From a bacterium (GTDB lineage: Bacteria; UBA8248; JACPRG01; G963555815), in assembly GCA_965218795.1 (NCBI GenBank), contig OZ244653.1, positions 3,520,001-3,584,000 of the forward strand: DNA of 64,000 nucleotides, written 5' to 3'. This document shows, piece after piece, positions 49,400 through 55,925 of this stretch. The position numbers were made by a program, and so were the translations under genes. How positions within the stretch are numbered: position 1 is the stretch's first letter; each line of letters opens with the position of its first letter. Under the pieces are notes generated by a model. The model was not told the origin of the DNA. It did no database searches and saw only the letters and a list, made by a program, of their open reading frames with translations.

Positions 49400-50216
49400 G
49401 AGCCTGTTAACCCTAGCGCAGTGCATCGACGATGAGCGCGAACAGGATGAAGCCGAGGTACAGGGCGTCGAGTTTCTCGAAGCGGGAGAAGATCCGGCGA
49501 AAGCCCTTCAATCGACGGAACAGACGCTCGATCTCGTTGCGCCTCTTCTACGTCTCCCGGTCGTACGCCCAAGGGGCGATCCGGGTCCTAAGAGGCGGAA
49601 CCACGGGCGCGTACCCCAGCGCCAAGGCCAGTGGGCGTGTCTCGCTGCCCTCGTATGCGCGATCCATCACCAAGGACGGGTTGCCGTGCCGCCGACCCAG
49701 GCGGTGCAGCAGCTTGCGCCCTTCCGGCGCATCGTGGGCCTGTCAGGGCGACAGCGCGAAGGTCAGGGCCGTTCGAGCATCCGCGGCAACCAGATGAATC
49801 CTGGTGGTCCACCCGCCCCGGGACTGGCCGATGGACTGGGGGCCGTTTTTTGTAGCGCACCCGTTCCGTCGGGATGGACCTTGACGATGGCGCTGTCCAG
49901 CGACACCGCCTCAAGCTGGATGCGCACGATCCGTTCCCGCTGCAACTGCTCGAAGACCCGGTCGAGCACCCCGTTCCTGGACCAGCGGTTCATCCGGGTG
50001 TAGATGGTGTGCCAGTTGCCGAACCGGGTCGGCAGCCCCCGCCACTTGCAGCCATGCTCGGCGACGTATACAGGATGGCGTTGAGCACTTGCAGGTTCGA
50101 CAGGCTGACGTTGCCGCGTTGCACCGGCAGGGAGGGTGCAATGCGTTCGTACTGAGCTTGGGTGATCTCCATCCGCAAAGGATAGCATAACCCCACCCAT
50201 TAGTGCTAACAGGCTC
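49400..50216 (-). mobile_element. IS5-family element (two-ORF, -1 frameshift type), inactivated
   Basis: TIRs GAGCCTGTTAAC / GCTAACAGGCTC, cTAg at both ends; transposase 50172-49413 with A6C slip site, 2-nt insertion near 50068 and TAG at 49548-49550. Confidence 0.88.
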
Positions 50217-50378
50217 TAGACCCCTGTCCATTGTGTCCATCGAGAACTGTCTCTGTTCGAGCAGCTCAAGAAAGTCTTCACCCTGCCGAATCGCGGACTG
50301 GCTCAGGCTGTTCTGAGATGGTATTCCCCTGACAGTTGGCCACGTTGTGCAGCGTGGTCATGCCGCCCCTGGGGAGTG

Positions 50379-51195
50379 TGTAGGATGGAGTTATCACCCT
50401 TCACCCCCACCCTGACCAGGAGACAGGACATGACCACGAAGGACAAGGCAGCACGACGCAAGCTGTCGCTGCTGGAGCTCGCCAAGGAACTGGACAACGT
50501 AAGCCGCGCCTGCAAGGTGATGGGGTACTCACGGCAGCAGTTCTACGAGATCCGGCGCAACTTCCAGACCTGCGGCGCCGAAGGGCTGATCGACCGACTG
50601 CCCGGACCGCACCCGAACCGGGTGGCGGCACAGGTCGAGGCGGCGATCCTGGATCATGCGCTGGAGCATCCGTGCCACGGTGCACTGCGGGTCGAGCAGG
50701 AACTGAGACTCAAGGGCATCCAGGTCTCCTCGCGCGGGGTGCGCGGGGTGTGCAGCGCCACGGGCTGTTGACCAGGCACGAGCGCCTGCTACGGCTGGAG
50801 ACGGCCACGGCCGAACGCAGGCTCGAGCTCAGCGAGGAGCAGACCCGGCTCCTGGAACGGTTCTCACCGGAGTTCCGAGAACGCCCCATACCGGCTCCCT
50901 GGTGGCCGTCGATACCTTCTTCGTCGGCGCCCTCAAGGGCGTGGGCAAGGTCTATCTGCAGACCGCGATCGACTGCCATTCACGCCATGCCTGGGCGCGC
51001 TTGTACCCGAACAAGCTGCCGGTGACCGCCGTGCACCTGATGAACAACGACGTGCTGTCGACCTTCGAGGCCGCCGGCACGCGCATCGAGGTGGTATTGT
51101 CAGACAATGGCCGCGAGTTCTGCGGCCGGCCCGACAGGCATCCCTACGAGCTGTTCCTGCGTCATGATAGCTTGAGTCAAGGTCTTCCTGCCTGA
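50379..51195 (+). mobile_element. IS481-family element remnant
   Basis: Starts TGTAGG; NVSRACKVMGYSRQQFY HTH, VDTFFVG, SDNGREF; frameshifts, 3' truncation after PYELFL. Confidence 0.85.
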
Positions 51196-51256
51196 TCGGA
51201 TTCCTCGCAGGGGCCTGAGGCCCCTCCGTCGGAAGGCGGGCATCCATCGCAAGATG

Positions 51257-51312
51257 AAAGTTTTTGAGGGGGGATGGGGGAGACAATTTTCAAAATGCCC
51301 CCCCCAAATTTC
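51257..51312 (+). repeat. Intergenic hairpin repeat, divergent copy D
   Basis: AAAGTTTTTGAGGGGGGATGGGGG..TTTTCAAAATGCCCCCCC, same layout as copies B and C. Confidence 0.6.
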
Positions 51313-51434
51313 GGGAATTACATTCTTAACTTGACAAGGGGGCACGGGCGGGGCAGGTCTCCTTCAAAGGGAGACATCCGGCCGGAGTCAAAACCGGATG
51401 CTGGATTGGCTCCCCCGCACGCGAAGGATGGATT

Positions 51435-51653
51435 TCACGAAGTTGGTAAATACCCTTCTCGAGTTGCGGCATCGAGCATTTGCGGAAGGGCCTCGACAGG
51501 AAACTCACCACCACGGGCAGGCTTCCCATTTCGGTCAAACCAAGTGTATTTGACGGATTTGATGGTCTCGTCTCCCCCAGCCCATGAAGCCACCCCAAGG
51601 CGAATTTTACAGTTTTCGTCATTTCTTGCTGTCTCTTCATGCTCTGTTTCCAT
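51435..51653 (-). CDS. Small hypothetical cargo protein (72 aa)
   Basis: GAGGGG RBS; globular sequence SVKYTWFD..ARGGE. Confidence 0.65.
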   Translation of the reverse strand: METEHEETARNDENCKIRLGVASWAGGDETIKSVKYTWFDRNGKPARGGEFPVEALPQMLDAATREGYLPTS

Positions 51654-51666
51654 TCTCTAGCCCCTC

Positions 51667-51852
51667 TCAGTAATGCAGCTCGTTCCAGTCGAATTCGATG
51701 CAGGATCGTTTTATTGCGACCTGATTGTCGAATGGATCCGCTGTGAATTCTTCATACAGCCATTTCGCTTCCCGCTCTAGGTTGAACAGGGGAACCCCCT
51801 GCATGATGGCCCTCGCAAGAAGGCGTCGCTCCGCAAATTCTTTGAAAGTCAT
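51667..51852 (-). CDS. Small hypothetical cargo protein (61 aa)
   Basis: GGAGG upstream; 13 nt before next ORF. Confidence 0.5.
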   Translation of the reverse strand: MTFKEFAERRLLARAIMQGVPLFNLEREAKWLYEEFTADPFDNQVAIKRSCIEFDWNELHY

Positions 51853-51894
51853 TTTCCAATTTCCTCCCCTGGGGCACTTGTCCCCATGAAGGTA

Positions 51895-51923
51895 TTGACA
51901 AATGTGTTGTAGGGAAGTAAATT
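51895..51923 (+). promoter_or_regulatory. Sigma70-like promoter antisense to cargo
   Basis: TTGACA-17nt-TAAATT. Confidence 0.55.
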
Positions 51924-51995
51924 GGAGGGTGTCTTAGGTCCTACCAATCCACTTCCGGTCAACCAATGTTCTGTGATACCCCCACTGGGGGCGGC

Positions 51996-52122
51996 TTATT
52001 GGTCCGTGTCGCCTTCATCCTCGGGCATCGGTCGCCGATACTTGACCTCACGTTTCGGCGTTTCCACCAGCGCCCGGTTGGCTTCCTCGGGGTTCCAGCC
52101 CTACGAGATTCAACTCACGCAT
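51996..52122 (-). pseudogene. Second copy of the element-linked short peptide, one extra base
   Basis: MRELNLVGLEP / EEANRALVETPKREVKYRRPMPEDEGDTDQ; start overlaps upstream stop. Confidence 0.6.
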
Positions 52123-52417
52123 CGGGGGGGATCCAATTTTCTTGTAGCCAATTAAACATACTTCTGTCATCCTTAGAAGGACCAAATCCGGCCCAATCTT
52201 TTATTACCACCTCCGAGACAAGGAGAGTGGATCCAGGAGCCAACCCTTTAATTTGTTCTCGAATGGATTGTGCATTAATTTCTTTCTCAAACACGATCAG
52301 CCATACACCATCAATCCAGTGCCACCAAAAGGCTTCCTGCTCTTCTATCCATTTACGGATAGACTCGTTAATCTCTTTCGTCTGAGAATCGATGCCGACG
52401 AAGAAATGACGCCTCAT
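52115..52417 (-). CDS. Small Trp-rich alpha/beta cargo protein (100 aa)
   Basis: WWHWIDGVWLI, WAGFG, FNWL; ATGA-coupled to upstream gene; low GC. Confidence 0.7.
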   Translation of the reverse strand: MRRHFFVGIDSQTKEINESIRKWIEEQEAFWWHWIDGVWLIVFEKEINAQSIREQIKGLAPGSTLLVSEVVIKDWAGFGPSKDDRSMFNWLQENWIPPDA

Positions 52418-52772
52418 TCTTTCTTTTCATCCTCACCATTGAATTGCGATGGCAATTTGATGGTTCCGTCGATATCAATGAATACCCCCTTGCTGTCATC
52501 GCCTTTCCAATGCTCAATGGCCATTTTGATGAGTGAAAATTTCTCTGACCGAAGAAGGGATGGGTCTCTGAAAAAGGCACAGATAAATACCACCAATAAA
52601 ATCACTAAGGACAAAGCAATCAATGCGAGAATAAATTTAATTACATAATGGGGAGCCTCAACAGACAGGCTCAAAATCAGTGCAGAACATATGGTCCCAA
52701 TGCAATAAGGATAGTGGACTTTTTCCACGTCCCCTGAGACTGCTCAAGGAATGATTTAAGGAAATTGACCAT
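52414..52772 (-). CDS. Two-TM cargo protein, probably frameshifted near 5' end
   Basis: TM pair then RDPSLLRSEKF; plausible N-terminus MVNFLKSFLEQSQGTWKKSTILIALG from 52772 is in another frame; in-frame GTG at 52728. Confidence 0.55.
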
Positions 52773-52799
52773 ATCCACAACCTTCTGGGTGGAGGCCGC

Positions 52800-52828
52800 T
52801 TGACACAACGGGTGGGTGGGTGCATATT
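52800..52828 (+). promoter_or_regulatory. Sigma70-like promoter antisense to cargo
   Basis: TTGACA-17nt-CATATT. Confidence 0.5.
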
Positions 52829-52881
52829 CTTACCCGCGCGCGCTGTCCGCATGGCCTCCTAAGATCGTGTTTGCGGACCAC

Positions 52882-52912
52882 AAAGCCAGGACCCGACGTC
52901 CTGGCTTTTGTG
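52882..52912 (+). terminator. Intrinsic terminator-like hairpin
   Basis: AAAGCCAGGAC-ccgac-GTCCTGGCTTT followed by TGTG. Confidence 0.6.
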
Positions 52913-52925
52913 CGTCTAGACTGTG

Positions 52926-53078
52926 TTATTCGCCTTCTTGCTTCTCCTCCTCGGGCATGGGCCGGCTGTATTTGACCTCGGGTTTTTCCTTCACCAGCGC
53001 CCGGTTGACCTCTTCGAATTTCCCGTAGAGGGGGTTCGTCGGAGCCTCTTCGTCAGTTTCCTGCGGCTTCTCCGTCAC
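52926..53078 (-). CDS. 50-aa peptide overlapping the transposase 3' end (below ORF-track cutoff)
   Basis: MTEKPQETDEEAPTNPLYGKFEEVNRALVKEKPEVKYSRPMPEEEKQEGE; paralog at 51996-52122. Confidence 0.65.
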   Translation of the reverse strand: MTEKPQETDEEAPTNPLYGKFEEVNRALVKEKPEVKYSRPMPEEEKQEGE

Positions 53079-53985
53079 TGATAAGCTCCCGGTACGGCAG
53101 GCGTTTTCCGAACATGCCCCGCGCGATCTGTTCGAGGCACCGCAGCGTATCGCCCTTCATGTTATGGCGACCGGAGAACTCGGTCAAGTATCGATGCAGG
53201 TGCTTCACGCTCATCTGGTGATAAATCCCGTAGTGCCCGCGCTTCAGGAGCGCCCAGAAGCTCTCGATCCCGTTCGTGTGGACCTGGTTGCGGACGTACT
53301 CGCCAACGGTGTGCCTCACCGTCTCGCGCACGAAGGGGATGCCTTTGTACTCGGCGGCGCTGTCCGTGTAGACCATGCTCCCGGGCCGGACGTTCTTGGT
53401 GATTTCCTCGTAGGCGATAGCCTTGTCGAACTTCTTCAGTGGAATCGCCCGAACCTTGCCCGCCTTCCGGTCCCTGATGCCCATGACCGACTGCTTCCCC
53501 ACGCCGCCGCGCCCCTGATTCAGCTTCTTCGACGAGTGCTTGTTCATCTCCTTGCCGCCGACAAACGCCTCGTCGATCTCGATCTCTCCCGGACCCATCG
53601 GCTCGCCGTGGTCAAGGTAAGCCTCTCGGATGCGGTGGGCCAGGTGCCAGGCGTTCTTCTGTGTGATGCCCAACTCCTTCGCCAACTGGACGCTCGATAT
53701 CCCCTTCCGAGCCGTGGTGATGAGATACGTCGCCAGCAGCCAAGTCCGCAACGGAAGCTTCGACTTCTCAAACACCGCCCCGGTCCTCACCGAGAAGTAT
53801 TTCCGGCAGGATTTGCACCAGTACGGCATGGGCTTGGACTTCGGAACCGGCTTCGTTTTCCCAACGGTCCCACAGTGCGGGCAGTACCGCTCCACGGGCC
53901 ACCGCAATTTCTCATAAAATCGCCGGGCCGCCCCCTCCGTCGGAAATTTCTCAGAAAATTCCAAAAAACTCATGTGCCCTTTCAT
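53053..53985 (-). CDS. IS1595-family DDE transposase, intact
   Basis: Zn ribbon CPHC/CKSC, GISSVQL HTH, EIDE, VYTD, HTNGIESFW, KHLHRYL. Confidence 0.95.
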   Translation of the reverse strand: MKGHMSFLEFSEKFPTEGAARRFYEKLRWPVERYCPHCGTVGKTKPVPKSKPMPYWCKSCRKYFSVRTGAVFEKSKLPLRTWLLATYLITTARKGISSVQLAKELGITQKNAWHLAHRIREAYLDHGEPMGPGEIEIDEAFVGGKEMNKHSSKKLNQGRGGVGKQSVMGIRDRKAGKVRAIPLKKFDKAIAYEEITKNVRPGSMVYTDSAAEYKGIPFVRETVRHTVGEYVRNQVHTNGIESFWALLKRGHYGIYHQMSVKHLHRYLTEFSGRHNMKGDTLRCLEQIARGMFGKRLPYRELISDGEAAGN

Positions 53986-54034
53986 TTACAAAGCTCCCTT
54001 TTGGCCTTACATTGAAGGGAAGGAGGTCCTCACT

Positions 54035-54235
54035 GTGAAAATCACAATCACGGAAACCACCATCGAGGTAGAAGGGGAAAAGGGCTCCCCTATTCGTTGG
54101 CACAATCTCTCAGCTTTTGCAGGATTACCGGAAGCTGAGATGGTGAAACGAGTATCTGGATTTCTTGAAGGGCTGGAGAAGGAGCTCCTTGAGGGCCGTT
54201 TGTCGAAGCTCGAAAATCGCTCTCTTTGCTTGTGA
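54035..54235 (+). CDS. Possible small protein (66 aa) inside the IS
   Basis: AAGGAGG RBS before GTG; overlaps an antisense ORF. Confidence 0.4.
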   Translation: MKITITETTIEVEGEKGSPIRWHNLSAFAGLPEAEMVKRVSGFLEGLEKELLEGRLSKLENRSLCL

Positions 54236-54314
54236 TGTACTCCAGAACCAACACGATTTCGGTCCCATCGCGGCGAACATCGAACCCCTGAAGAAAATTC
54301 GCTTTCCTGTCCAA
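54090..54314 (-). CDS. Possible small protein (74 aa) upstream of transposase
   Basis: AGGGGG RBS before TTG, directly downstream of the TIR promoter. Confidence 0.5.
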   Translation of the reverse strand: MDRKANFLQGFDVRRDGTEIVLVLEYITSKESDFRASTNGPQGAPSPALQEIQILVSPSQLPVILQKLRDCANE

Positions 54315-54330
54315 TATGATTCCCCCTTTC

Positions 54331-54366
54331 TGCTTATAATATAAGCATTTAGAGGGATTCTGTCAA
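54331..54366 (-). promoter_or_regulatory. TIR-embedded inward promoter with palindrome over the -10
   Basis: TTGACA-17nt-TATATT on minus strand; TGCTTATA-A-TATAAGCA at 54331-54347. Confidence 0.65.
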
Positions 54367-54467
54367 GTAATAAATATAATTCCCAAAATTTCATCCCCTG
54401 AAATCTGGTATCCTAAAGGTGCATTCCGATCCGAACGGATGCGTATGACACAGAGGGGGGAACCGCC

Positions 54468-55193
54468 ATGGTCAGGATCGCGGCAAGACCGGAGCCGATC
54501 GAGATCAACCTCGCCCGGACGGCTCTCATCGTCGTAGACATGCAGAATTCCTTCGGAAGCAAGGGCGGCATGCTGGATCTGGCCGGACGGGATATCTCGG
54601 GCGCCCCGCCGGTCATCGCGGTGCACCACCGCCTCCTCGACACGGCCCGAAAGGCCGGCGTCCGGATCATCTATCTCCAAATGACCTACAAGCCGGACCT
54701 CAGCGACGCGGGCGGACCAGACTCTCCCAACTACCACAAGCAGGTGGGGGTTGTCATGATGCGGAAACGCCCGGAACTCCACGGGAAATTCCTGGTGAAG
54801 GGCACGTGGGACTGGAAGATCATAGAGGGGTTGGAGCCCCAGCCCGGGGATTGGGTGGTCGAAAAGCCCCGGTACAGCGGGTTCTGCGGAACCGCGCTGG
54901 ATTCCCTGCTTCGGTCCGAGGATATCCGCTACGTCATCATGACCGGGATCGCGACGAACGTGTGCGTGGAGAGTACGGCCCGGGACGCCTTTTTCGGGGA
55001 GTTCTGGCCCATCCTGGTGGAGGATGCCGTGAACCACACCGGACCCGATTTTTGCCGCGAGGCAACACTGTGGAACATGCAGAGATACTTCGGCTGGGTC
55101 ACGAACTCGGACACGTTGATGGAGATCTTCGACGCCGCCACGAAGCGCGCGGTCATGGAAGATCCTGCAGAGGAAGGCGCAGCCGCCGGCTGA
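54468..55193 (+). CDS. Isochorismatase-family cysteine hydrolase, RutB-like, copy 1
   Basis: IAARPE, VVDMQN, SPNYHK, KPRYSGF, GIATNVCVEST. Confidence 0.88.
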   Translation: MVRIAARPEPIEINLARTALIVVDMQNSFGSKGGMLDLAGRDISGAPPVIAVHHRLLDTARKAGVRIIYLQMTYKPDLSDAGGPDSPNYHKQVGVVMMRKRPELHGKFLVKGTWDWKIIEGLEPQPGDWVVEKPRYSGFCGTALDSLLRSEDIRYVIMTGIATNVCVESTARDAFFGEFWPILVEDAVNHTGPDFCREATLWNMQRYFGWVTNSDTLMEIFDAATKRAVMEDPAEEGAAAG

Positions 55194-55211: not shown

Positions 55212-55925
55212 ATGGTCAAGATTGCGGCAAGACCGGAGGCGGTTGAAATCGATCTGGAACGGACGGCCGTCATCGTCGTCGACATGCAGAACGCCTTCGC
55301 CACGAAGGGCGGAGCGATCGACCTGGCAGGGGACGACATCTCGGGCGCAGAGCCGGTTATCGAGGTGCACCACCGCCTGCTCGACTCCGCTCGAAAGGCC
55401 GGCGTCCGGGTCATCTACCTCCAAATGACCTACCAGCCGGATCTTCACGACACGGGCGGTCCGAACTCACCCAACTACTACAAGGAGGTGGGACCCACCC
55501 TGATGCGGAAACGCCCGGAGCTCGAGGGAAAGATCCTCGTGGACGGGACCTGGGACTGGCAGATCGTCGACGGACTGGAGCCGCAGCCCGGAGACCTCGT
55601 CGTACCGAAAACCCGGTACAGCGGGTTCTCCGGTACGAACCTGGAATCCCTGCTCCGGACCGAGGACGTTCGGCACCTCCTCTTCACCGGGATCGCGACC
55701 AACGTATGCGTGGAGAGCACGGCCCGGGACGCCTTTTTCGGAGAATTCTGGCCCATCCTCGTAGAGGATGCCATGAACCACACCGGACCCGACTTTTGCC
55801 GGGAGGCAACGCTCTGGAACTTCGAGCACGTGTTCGGGTGGGTCACCCGAACCGGGAGCTTGATTGAAATCTTCGATGCGGCCGCCCGGCGGGGAGCGAT
55901 GGAAAAGGCCGGGCAGAAGGGGTGA
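55212..55925 (+). CDS. Isochorismatase-family cysteine hydrolase, RutB-like, copy 2
   Basis: Same motifs (KTRYSGF); colinear paralog of copy 1. Confidence 0.88.
   Translation: MVKIAARPEAVEIDLERTAVIVVDMQNAFATKGGAIDLAGDDISGAEPVIEVHHRLLDSARKAGVRVIYLQMTYQPDLHDTGGPNSPNYYKEVGPTLMRKRPELEGKILVDGTWDWQIVDGLEPQPGDLVVPKTRYSGFSGTNLESLLRTEDVRHLLFTGIATNVCVESTARDAFFGEFWPILVEDAMNHTGPDFCREATLWNFEHVFGWVTRTGSLIEIFDAAARRGAMEKAGQKG

Follow-up and report, generated by a model that had tools for sequence, protein, structure and literature searches.

Transporter insertion sequences (tISs) of the IS1595 family, which carry passenger genes, are described in passages of three papers (PMC3129680, PMC8496243, and PMC11891212, which cite Siguier et al. 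2009), ISNha5 with its transcription-regulator passenger being one example. In this study, we analyzed a 64,000-nt stretch of DNA from a bacterium of the lineage UBA8248 (contig OZ244653.1 of assembly GCA_965218795.1, positions 3,520,001 to 3,584,000; referred to here as the window), and found a transporter insertion sequence (IS) of this family whose cargo is probably a one-off mosaic of the 3' ends of two sister elements. The element resembles the known tISs in its transposase with a DDE_Tnp_IS1595 domain and an N-terminal zinc ribbon, its short inverted repeats, its 8-bp target duplication, its internal passengers, and the joint movement of these parts. Unlike the known tISs, its passenger region appears to be a two-block mosaic that includes a relic of a second leader of ORF2, the open reading frame (ORF) behind the transposase, and its own ORF2 consists of the leader only. 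Passenger-carrying IS1595 tISs are already known; the general pattern of a leader with swapped content behind it is what merits further attention. A literature search, which did not extend to ISfinder or the original 2009 paper on the family, found no description of a shared IS1595 ORF2 leader with interchangeable bodies, and no paper found in the literature search linked IS1595 with P63C, KilA-N, Bro-N, or RhuM. Passenger-carrying ISs blur the boundary between ISs and transposons, and the uptake and exchange of their cargo are poorly understood; the window appears to show the seam of one such exchange at the level of single bases.

Several other systems share single traits with this locus. 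Integron cassette arrays also combine a constant platform with exchangeable gene units. Unlike integrons, the element holds no integrase and no attC-like site at the module borders, its relatives show no arrays, and the breakpoints are not fixed. IS10 RNA-OUT and IS200 art200 are antisense RNAs of insertion sequences, made from a promoter opposite to the transposase strand inside the element. In contrast, the promoter sites in the window are located in the cargo spacers behind the transposase, away from its 5' end; moreover, they are predicted from sequence and are not conserved in relatives. In IS1 (InsA/InsB) and IS3 (OrfA/OrfB), two frames overlap, the second beginning within or at the end of the first, and their expression is coupled. 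Unlike these, ORF2 in the window comes after a transposase that is complete by itself; it is read in the +1 frame from a start codon of its own and has a replaceable body. The modules known from phage gene shuffling (Bro-N, KilA-N, P63C, and RhuM; PF02498, PF04383, PF10546, and PF13310) are the same as those found behind the leader in relatives of the element. Unlike in phages, these modules in the relatives are parts of an IS ORF2 with a common N-terminal leader, and the window element carries none of them.

The coordinates of the element and its parts are collected in Table 1. The terminal inverted repeats are short (24 bp), as is usual for the IS1595 family, and of the type GGG..TATA..CT(T/A)G(A/C)CA; the same type surrounds most of the relatives in which inverted repeats were sought. 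The two copies of the target duplication agree at 7 of 8 positions and with the empty-site contigs described below, and 8 bp is the figure for the IS1595 family. The inner TTGACA of the left repeat serves as the -35 box of an inward promoter-like site (TTGACA-17-TATATT, 54366..54338). From left to right, the left repeat is followed by a 333-nt insert, the transposase, peptide 1, spacer 1, A1, A2, and the seam, and then by the peptide-2 fragment, spacer 2, B1, B2, and the right repeat.

Table 1. Features of the IS1595-family element in the window (positions are those of the window)
Feature	Position	Strand	Description	Basis
Whole IS1595-family transporter IS	51313..54384	minus	3,072 bp	Inverted repeats and empty-site contigs
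Left inverted repeat	54361..54384	minus	GGGAATTAT...CTTGACA	
Right inverted repeat	51313..51336	plus	20/24 bases same as left repeat	
Target-site duplication	51305..51312		CAAATTTC; partner copy AAAATTTC at 54385-54392	
333-nt insert	53987..54319		Between left-repeat promoter/ribosome-binding site and transposase ATG	
Transposase	53053..53985	minus	310 aa, intact	Pfam and homologues
Peptide 1	52926..53078	minus	50 aa, likely a stand-alone ORF2 leader	Homologues and profile-profile match
Spacer 1	52729..52925		197 nt if A1 starts at first GTG; plus-strand unit	
A1	52414..52728	minus	104 aa, membrane-like ORF, start uncertain	
A2	52115..52417	minus	100 aa, start overlaps A1 stop (ATGA)	
Seam 30-mer	52085..52114	minus	29/30 identical to a two-copy chromosomal repeat	
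Peptide 2 relic	51996..52100	minus	34 open codons and stop	
Spacer 2	51853..51995		143 nt; plus-strand promoter-like site 51895-51923	
B1	51667..51852	minus	61 aa	
B2	51435..51653	minus	72 aa, widespread small-protein family	

The transposase matched the Pfam profile DDE_Tnp_IS1595 (ISXO2-like; PF12762) with an E-value of 4.3e-35 (121 bits against a cut-off of 27), and its N-terminus matched Zn_ribbon_IS1595 (PF12760) with an E-value of 2.5e-6 (27.8 bits against a cut-off of 25.4). Relatives were taken as the 80 closest transposase loci from species genomes, and their identity to the window transposase is 47-56%; relatives on plasmids carry the annotation 'IS1595 family transposase'. The residues D138, D208, E241, and K248, which we take to be the catalytic residues of the window transposase, are invariant across 33 aligned transposases.

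The 5.17-Mb host genome contains one full copy of the element. Contigs from the runs X5, X6, and X9 connect position 51300 to 54382, omitting 3,081 nt, with 0-1 differences in the flanks. Since the site is empty in these contigs, the transposase, both peptide copies, and both gene pairs came as one insertion. The insertion site is thus polymorphic among close host relatives, and the element is a recent insertion. All of the passengers (A1, A2, B1, B2, and the 333-nt insert) lie between the inverted repeats and are mobilized together, as in a transporter IS. The GC content (guanine plus cytosine) is 0.59-0.62 in the transposase, 0.40-0.43 in module A (A1/A2), and ~0.50 in module B (B1/B2), compared with 0.62-0.70 in the flanks.

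The initial annotation of this region had pointed to two copies of a peptide on the minus strand, and this repeat is real. At the DNA level the copies form direct repeats of 41 nt (52015-52055 and 52945-52985, 78% identity, 930 nt apart) and 32 nt (52065-52096 and 52992-53023, 81% identity, 927 nt apart), with an E-value of 5e-5 for the self-match against the whole 5.17-Mb genome. At the protein level they are 72% identical over 25 aa (tblastn), and a hidden Markov model (HMM) of the peptide finds copy 2 with an E-value of 4.6e-6. The annotation had also described each peptide as overlapping the upstream stop, which holds for copy 1 and not for copy 2. Specifically, peptide 1 begins at a GTG with a GGGAG box 8 nt upstream, and overlaps the 3' end of the transposase (stop codon at 53055-53053) by 26 nt in the +1 frame. 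Its homologues of 51-52 aa share the N-terminus (87% identity in P0002, 73% in P0003). These observations demonstrate that peptide 1 is a genuine small gene coupled to the transposase stop. The frame of peptide 2 opens after a TAG located 12 nt downstream of the A2 stop, offers no ATG, GTG, or TTG preceding the conserved residues, and is missing the core LYGKF.

We compared the two copies over 19 gap-free codons, and found that 10 are identical, 6 differ synonymously, and 3 differ non-synonymously. The base differences are distributed 1/1/8 over the codon positions (10 in 57 nt), and there is an in-frame 3-nt indel in addition. Because 8 of the 10 differences are at third positions, the two copies diverged separately as coding sequences. 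Although it now has no start codon, the peptide-2 fragment was under coding constraint while it diverged from peptide 1, and it evolved in a separate element.

Evidence on the source of peptide 2 came from sister elements. The relatives in X5 and X6 are ~96% identical to the window element (35 differences in 943 nt of transposase). They cease to match at 52944-52948, within the last codons of peptide 1, and continue for 236-535 nt with sequence unlike the window, two different records being found in X6. One X5 contig (depth 3.3) carries a single uninterrupted peptide gene, the 5' part of which aligns with peptide 1; its tail consists of 22 letters like 51996-52017, followed by ~20 nt of spacer 2. 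The middle of the homologue P0003 is also peptide-2-like. Furthermore, the start of spacer 2 (the hairpin CCCCCAGTGGGGG and beyond, ~110 nt) is homologous to the sequence behind the peptide of L119, a locus from another genus of the same family as the host. Taken together, the X5 contig, P0003, and the L119 homology indicate that peptide 2 and spacer 2 are the normal 3' region of a sister element.

The reading that fits these data best is one that the initial annotation had offered as an alternative, namely that the 3' ends of two related ISs recombined once. The block made of the peptide-2 relic, spacer 2, B1, B2, and the right inverted repeat would be the 3' end of one sister element, and a single illegitimate recombination would have linked it to cargo from a second sister (the tail of peptide 1, spacer 1, A1, and A2). 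The seam would consist of 25-30 nt that are also found in the host chromosome. This match points to an illegitimate join involving host-like DNA; a 24-mer of the seam was found in none of 60 relatives at up to 3 mismatches. Selection has probably preserved the leader through every cargo change because the element needs it, candidate reasons being translational coupling to the transposase or contact with the transposase.

To place the peptide in the wider family, we examined where it occurs elsewhere. The initial annotation had linked the peptide to IS1595, and this link was borne out in two ways. At 6 of 10 non-redundant places outside the window, peptides of the form NPL[YF]GKF[DE]E directly follow a transposase or what is left of its C-terminus, often with an ATGA overlap (e.g., L018 from a Gemmatimonadota genome, the metagenome contigs L089 and L090/L091, and L116, L117, and L119 from genomes of the window's own phylum). 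No copy of the peptide was found in viral contigs. Among the 80 relatives, 25 carry an ORF with the strict leader motif in its first 45 residues, at -90 to +80 nt from the transposase stop, and an HMM grown from this set matched 33, of which the 25 seeds are circular, 8 are additional, and L052 is doubtful. By eye, three methylase fusions were also identified. ORF2 usually begins 7 nt before the transposase stop codon ends and uses the +1 frame, as it does in the window.

The leader consensus M..IEPIDAxFDDVxxALV aligns without gaps to NPLYGKFEEVNRALV. When 11 window-type peptides were compared with 25 leaders of long ORF2s by hhalign, the probability was 88.7% (P 2.6e-6, 23 columns). Thus, peptide 1 is likely, although not proven, to be homologous to the N-terminal ORF2 leader of a large IS1595 branch. 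Two findings speak against this homology or the link to the transposase. A strict HMM of 22 long-ORF2 leaders missed peptide 1 in the six-frame translation of the own genome (E <= 10), so that the homology rests on the profile-profile score together with the identical position and frame. The other is that 4 of the 10 peptide places (L086 in the own genome, L092, L093-95, and L096) have no transposase remnant.

The bodies of ORF2 behind the ~20-residue leader are diverse. We found P63C in 12 relatives and one truncated case, a ~345-aa family without a known name in 11, C5 methylases in 3, RhuM in 2, Bro-N in 2, KilA-N in 1, a D12 N6-methylase in 1, or a short tail only. All of these bodies lie within the inverted repeats of elements that are 2.0-5.6 kb long. 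In the transposase phylogeny, which is a quick tree only, a clade of 43 leaderless elements (support 99) is set apart from the side that holds the leader-bearing elements (37 rows, support 86). The body types are intermingled on the tree, and P63C requires at least 3 changes. For example, L043 (the family without a name) and L079 (RhuM) are sisters with support 99 and have different bodies.

The DNA of sister pairs with different bodies locates the change. In five of six such pairs, the sequences are homologous from the left repeat until 45-51 nt beyond the transposase stop, and homology returns only at the right repeat (24-31 nt); in the sixth, it stops 6 nt before the transposase stop. The cargo DNA and spacers of the window element were not found in 60 relatives, the matches falling inside the transposase only. 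As the initial annotation had supposed, related elements begin to carry different cargo directly after the leader. The breakpoints vary: they lie at about codon 19 of ORF2 in the family pairs, whereas the window's sisters break off after PMPEE and the relic starts to match before EEANRALV. The comparison may reflect a general rule for the branch, in which the left repeat, transposase, and leader would form a constant platform, and the stretch from the leader to the right repeat would be replaceable even among close transposases. If the leader is needed for transposition or cargo expression, it would provide a handle for finding and annotating such elements and for testing cargo recruitment. 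A bolder version, to which we give only a small chance, is that a large IS1595 branch has made the ~20-residue leader, whose translation is coupled to the transposase stop, into a universal docking module. The bodies (DNA-binding proteins, methylases, or nothing) would be co-expressed and perhaps tethered, the stretch behind the leader would be the preferred place of exchange, and the window element would be a rare stacked form insulated by antisense RNAs. If this were true, these elements would be natural gene-swapping vehicles.

The two spacers were analyzed for promoter-like sites and hairpins. The initial annotation had given both a length of 140-155 nt, which fits spacer 2, while spacer 1 is longer if A1 begins at its first GTG. 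The plus-strand promoter-like sites that it had listed are present in both, TTGACA-17-CATATT at 52800-52828 in spacer 1 and TTGACA-17-TAAATT in spacer 2. Counting both strands, the genome has 145 sites of this quality, a density of 0.014 per kb per strand, and 3 of them fall in the 3.08-kb element; consensus sites in the element are far above chance. The 145 sites form no family with the two spacers. Hairpins had been described for the spacers in general, and they were confirmed in spacer 1, where folding is clear (z -3.0): a 7-bp stem is followed by a terminator hairpin and TTTTGTG, the T-run ending near 52912. The spacer-1 unit has a 76%-identical copy in the own genome at 3413174-3413293 (L002 1494-1625). 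In this copy, the two promoter boxes (-35 and -10), the 17-nt distance between them, and the two stems are conserved, and the promoter spacer and the loops differ; the similarity of the two copies extends from the -35 box to the terminator T-run. By its sequence features, the spacer-1 unit looks like a small RNA gene.

Both plus-strand consensus promoters may be functional. Spacer 1 would then yield a compact ~80-nt RNA (promoter, two hairpins, and terminator) complementary to read-through from the transposase and peptide into A1, and the antisense RNA from spacer 2 would span the relic and module A. The two predicted RNAs would act as insulators that separate transcription of the transposase from that of the cargo, and the plus-strand promoters probably make RNAs that uncouple the cargo from transposase transcription.

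We considered how else the double module might have arisen. The initial annotation had favored a true modular system resembling a cassette array, in which the peptide gene is a dedicated junction for swapping or stacking modules and each module is controlled by antisense RNA. Such a system would account for sister transposases that share the leader and differ in what lies downstream of it, for near-identical elements that diverge directly behind the peptide, for consensus promoters above chance on the same strand in both spacers, and for the orphan peptides that occur without a transposase. However, copy 2 is a relic without a start codon and the conserved core, none of 46 other leader-bearing loci has a second leader copy, and the breakpoints are scattered with no single position. 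In addition, the peptide fragment is the sole repeat shared by the modules, so that no repeat resembling a recombination site bounds them, the element has no recombinase besides the DDE transposase, and 8 of 9 other loci have no promoter behind the peptide. We hold such a system to be quite improbable. Stacking by transposition has a somewhat better, still low, chance of being correct. Here, an A-type element would have inserted in the peptide gene of a decayed B-type relic and then used the distal right repeat of the relic in a one-ended or composite manner. Decayed relics do exist (a transposase remnant and peptide in L116 and L119, and the orphan peptide L086 in the own genome), and A and B are now mobile as a single insertion, but inspection by eye found neither an inner right inverted repeat nor an 8-bp duplication at the seam, and what the seam does match, over 25-30 nt, is a chromosomal repeat. 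A duplication of the peptide region within the element, or a chance resemblance, can be set aside with near certainty. The copies do share an orientation and lie 930 nt apart, as a duplication would leave them. Against duplication, the number and third-position bias of their differences, together with the in-frame indel, imply that the copies evolved apart for a long time as genes, the cargo beside them is unrelated, and copy 2 has a tail that matches another type of sister; chance is countered by the genome-wide E-value of the self-match. We consider the one-off join of two sister 3' ends to be the probable origin. Some observations weigh against it as well: the sister that donated B1/B2 was not seen, the X5 contig covers spacer 2 for only those ~20 nt, the join does not explain the 30-mer at the seam, and the window transposase sits on a long branch with its placement open, attached weakly (support 80) to the leaderless side of the tree.

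The role of the spacers was weighed in the same way. The promoter-like sites might be leftovers or promoters of captured cargo DNA, and the spacer-1 hairpins only a bidirectional terminator, which is possible although we lean against it. This explanation agrees with the lack of conservation behind the peptide in relatives and with the presence of the spacer-1 unit ahead of an unrelated gene at another site of the genome. A covariance model of the unit found its own two copies, plus generic terminators in 2 of 60 relatives. A search of the element and three related loci against Rfam gave sub-threshold matches only (ctRNA_p42d, 23.4 bits against a gathering threshold of 50; anti-hemB, 20.9 against 49.5). 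On the other side, consensus sites are strongly enriched in the element, and the conservation of the spacer-1 unit is bounded by the -35 box and the terminator T-run. Uncoupling by antisense RNAs, the role proposed above, has its own difficulties. Spacer 2 is unstructured (z +1.2), contrary to the hairpins initially described there, and both stems are identical in the two copies of the spacer-1 unit, so that no covariation is seen. The idea that a promoter behind the peptide is a general feature also failed, as the only such site among the 9 other loci is weak (9/12).

For the seam and the spacers, three further identities were considered. A tRNA 3' end at the seam was not supported, as ARAGORN called no tRNA in L001, L002, L004, or L005. 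An attC site was not supported either, since no inverse-core/core pair could be seen by eye. The TTGACA boxes of the spacers were compared by eye with the right inverted repeat as possible inner relics of it, and no similarity was found past the hexamer.

The seam 30-mer lies in a ~780-bp repeat that is present twice in the own genome, at 944723-945499 (L005) and 3051287-3053403 (L004). One copy is split by a 1.33-kb multi-copy insertion. The repeat also holds a 103-aa zinc-ribbon-like ORF and a tRNA-like remnant that was not called by ARAGORN.

The cargo comprises two different pairs of small ORFs, A1/A2 and B1/B2, as initially annotated. Neither these four ORFs, nor peptide 1, nor the ORFs of the 333-nt insert matched a family above the cut-off in Pfam, NCBIfam, PADLOC, or PHROGs. 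A1 matched unnamed clusters only in the Atlas. A2 matched only itself among 5.8 billion clusters. B1 matched, besides itself, only a repeat unit in P0116 at 31% identity (1,265 aa; the unit occurs in 8 stretches). B2 belongs to a ~70-aa family, with 110 clusters at 51-74% identity. It had no match in plasmids or phages, and was found alone in 3 viral contigs with no B1-like neighbor. The structural model of B2 consists of four strands and a helix, with a predicted local distance difference test (pLDDT) score of 85. Its fold weakly matches single-strand binders of the PC4/Sub1/Pur-alpha type (E 0.07-0.3), which we regard as a lead only.

The 333-nt insert is absent from the sister elements in X5 and X6, which jump from 53986 to 54320. 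It carries a plus-strand ORF of 66 aa (54035-54235) with a strong ribosome-binding site (AAGGAGG-8-GTG), behind the promoter-like site TTTACA-17-TACATT.

Several of the loci examined showed features of their own. The 76%-identical copy of the spacer-1 unit precedes an unrelated low-GC ORF of 290 aa (phrog_10865, 2e-13, function not known) and a 149-aa membrane ORF. The best six-frame match of the strict leader HMM in the own genome is at 2946055-2946246 on the plus strand (E 0.042). The metagenome contigs L090/L091 (2685-4444) and L117 (G021, a genome of the window's class) carry the same cargo behind the leader peptide, a C5 DNA methylase and an unnamed ORF of 245 aa, which may together form a restriction-modification pair. 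In both, a frame break separates the methylase from the peptide. L116 and L119 (G004) are truncated copies of an element that keep only transposase residues ~267-303 and the peptide. They share their upstream junction (FGTYIFGL..LDLTEFSGR), and thus look like a propagated deletion derivative. In L093, L094, and L095, the leader motif begins a 140-aa ORF with no transposase nearby, followed by a gene for a retropepsin-like aspartyl protease (PF13975, 1e-7).

The surroundings of the insertion are rich in other features. Two isochorismatase-family genes stand in tandem on the plus strand at 54468-55193 and 55212-55925 (PF00857, 6e-41 and 2e-42). The IS lies ~80 nt upstream of the first of them, and may affect its promoter. 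Just beyond the right end, a ~70-nt repeat (51235-51304) has 27 other matches in the genome. A broken rve-type transposase on the plus strand (50376-51195), with helix-turn-helix domains and then the rve integrase core in another frame, ends beside this repeat. A fragmented IS4/IS5-type transposase (DUF4096) is located at 49763-50240 on the minus strand, indicating that several mobile elements are clustered here.

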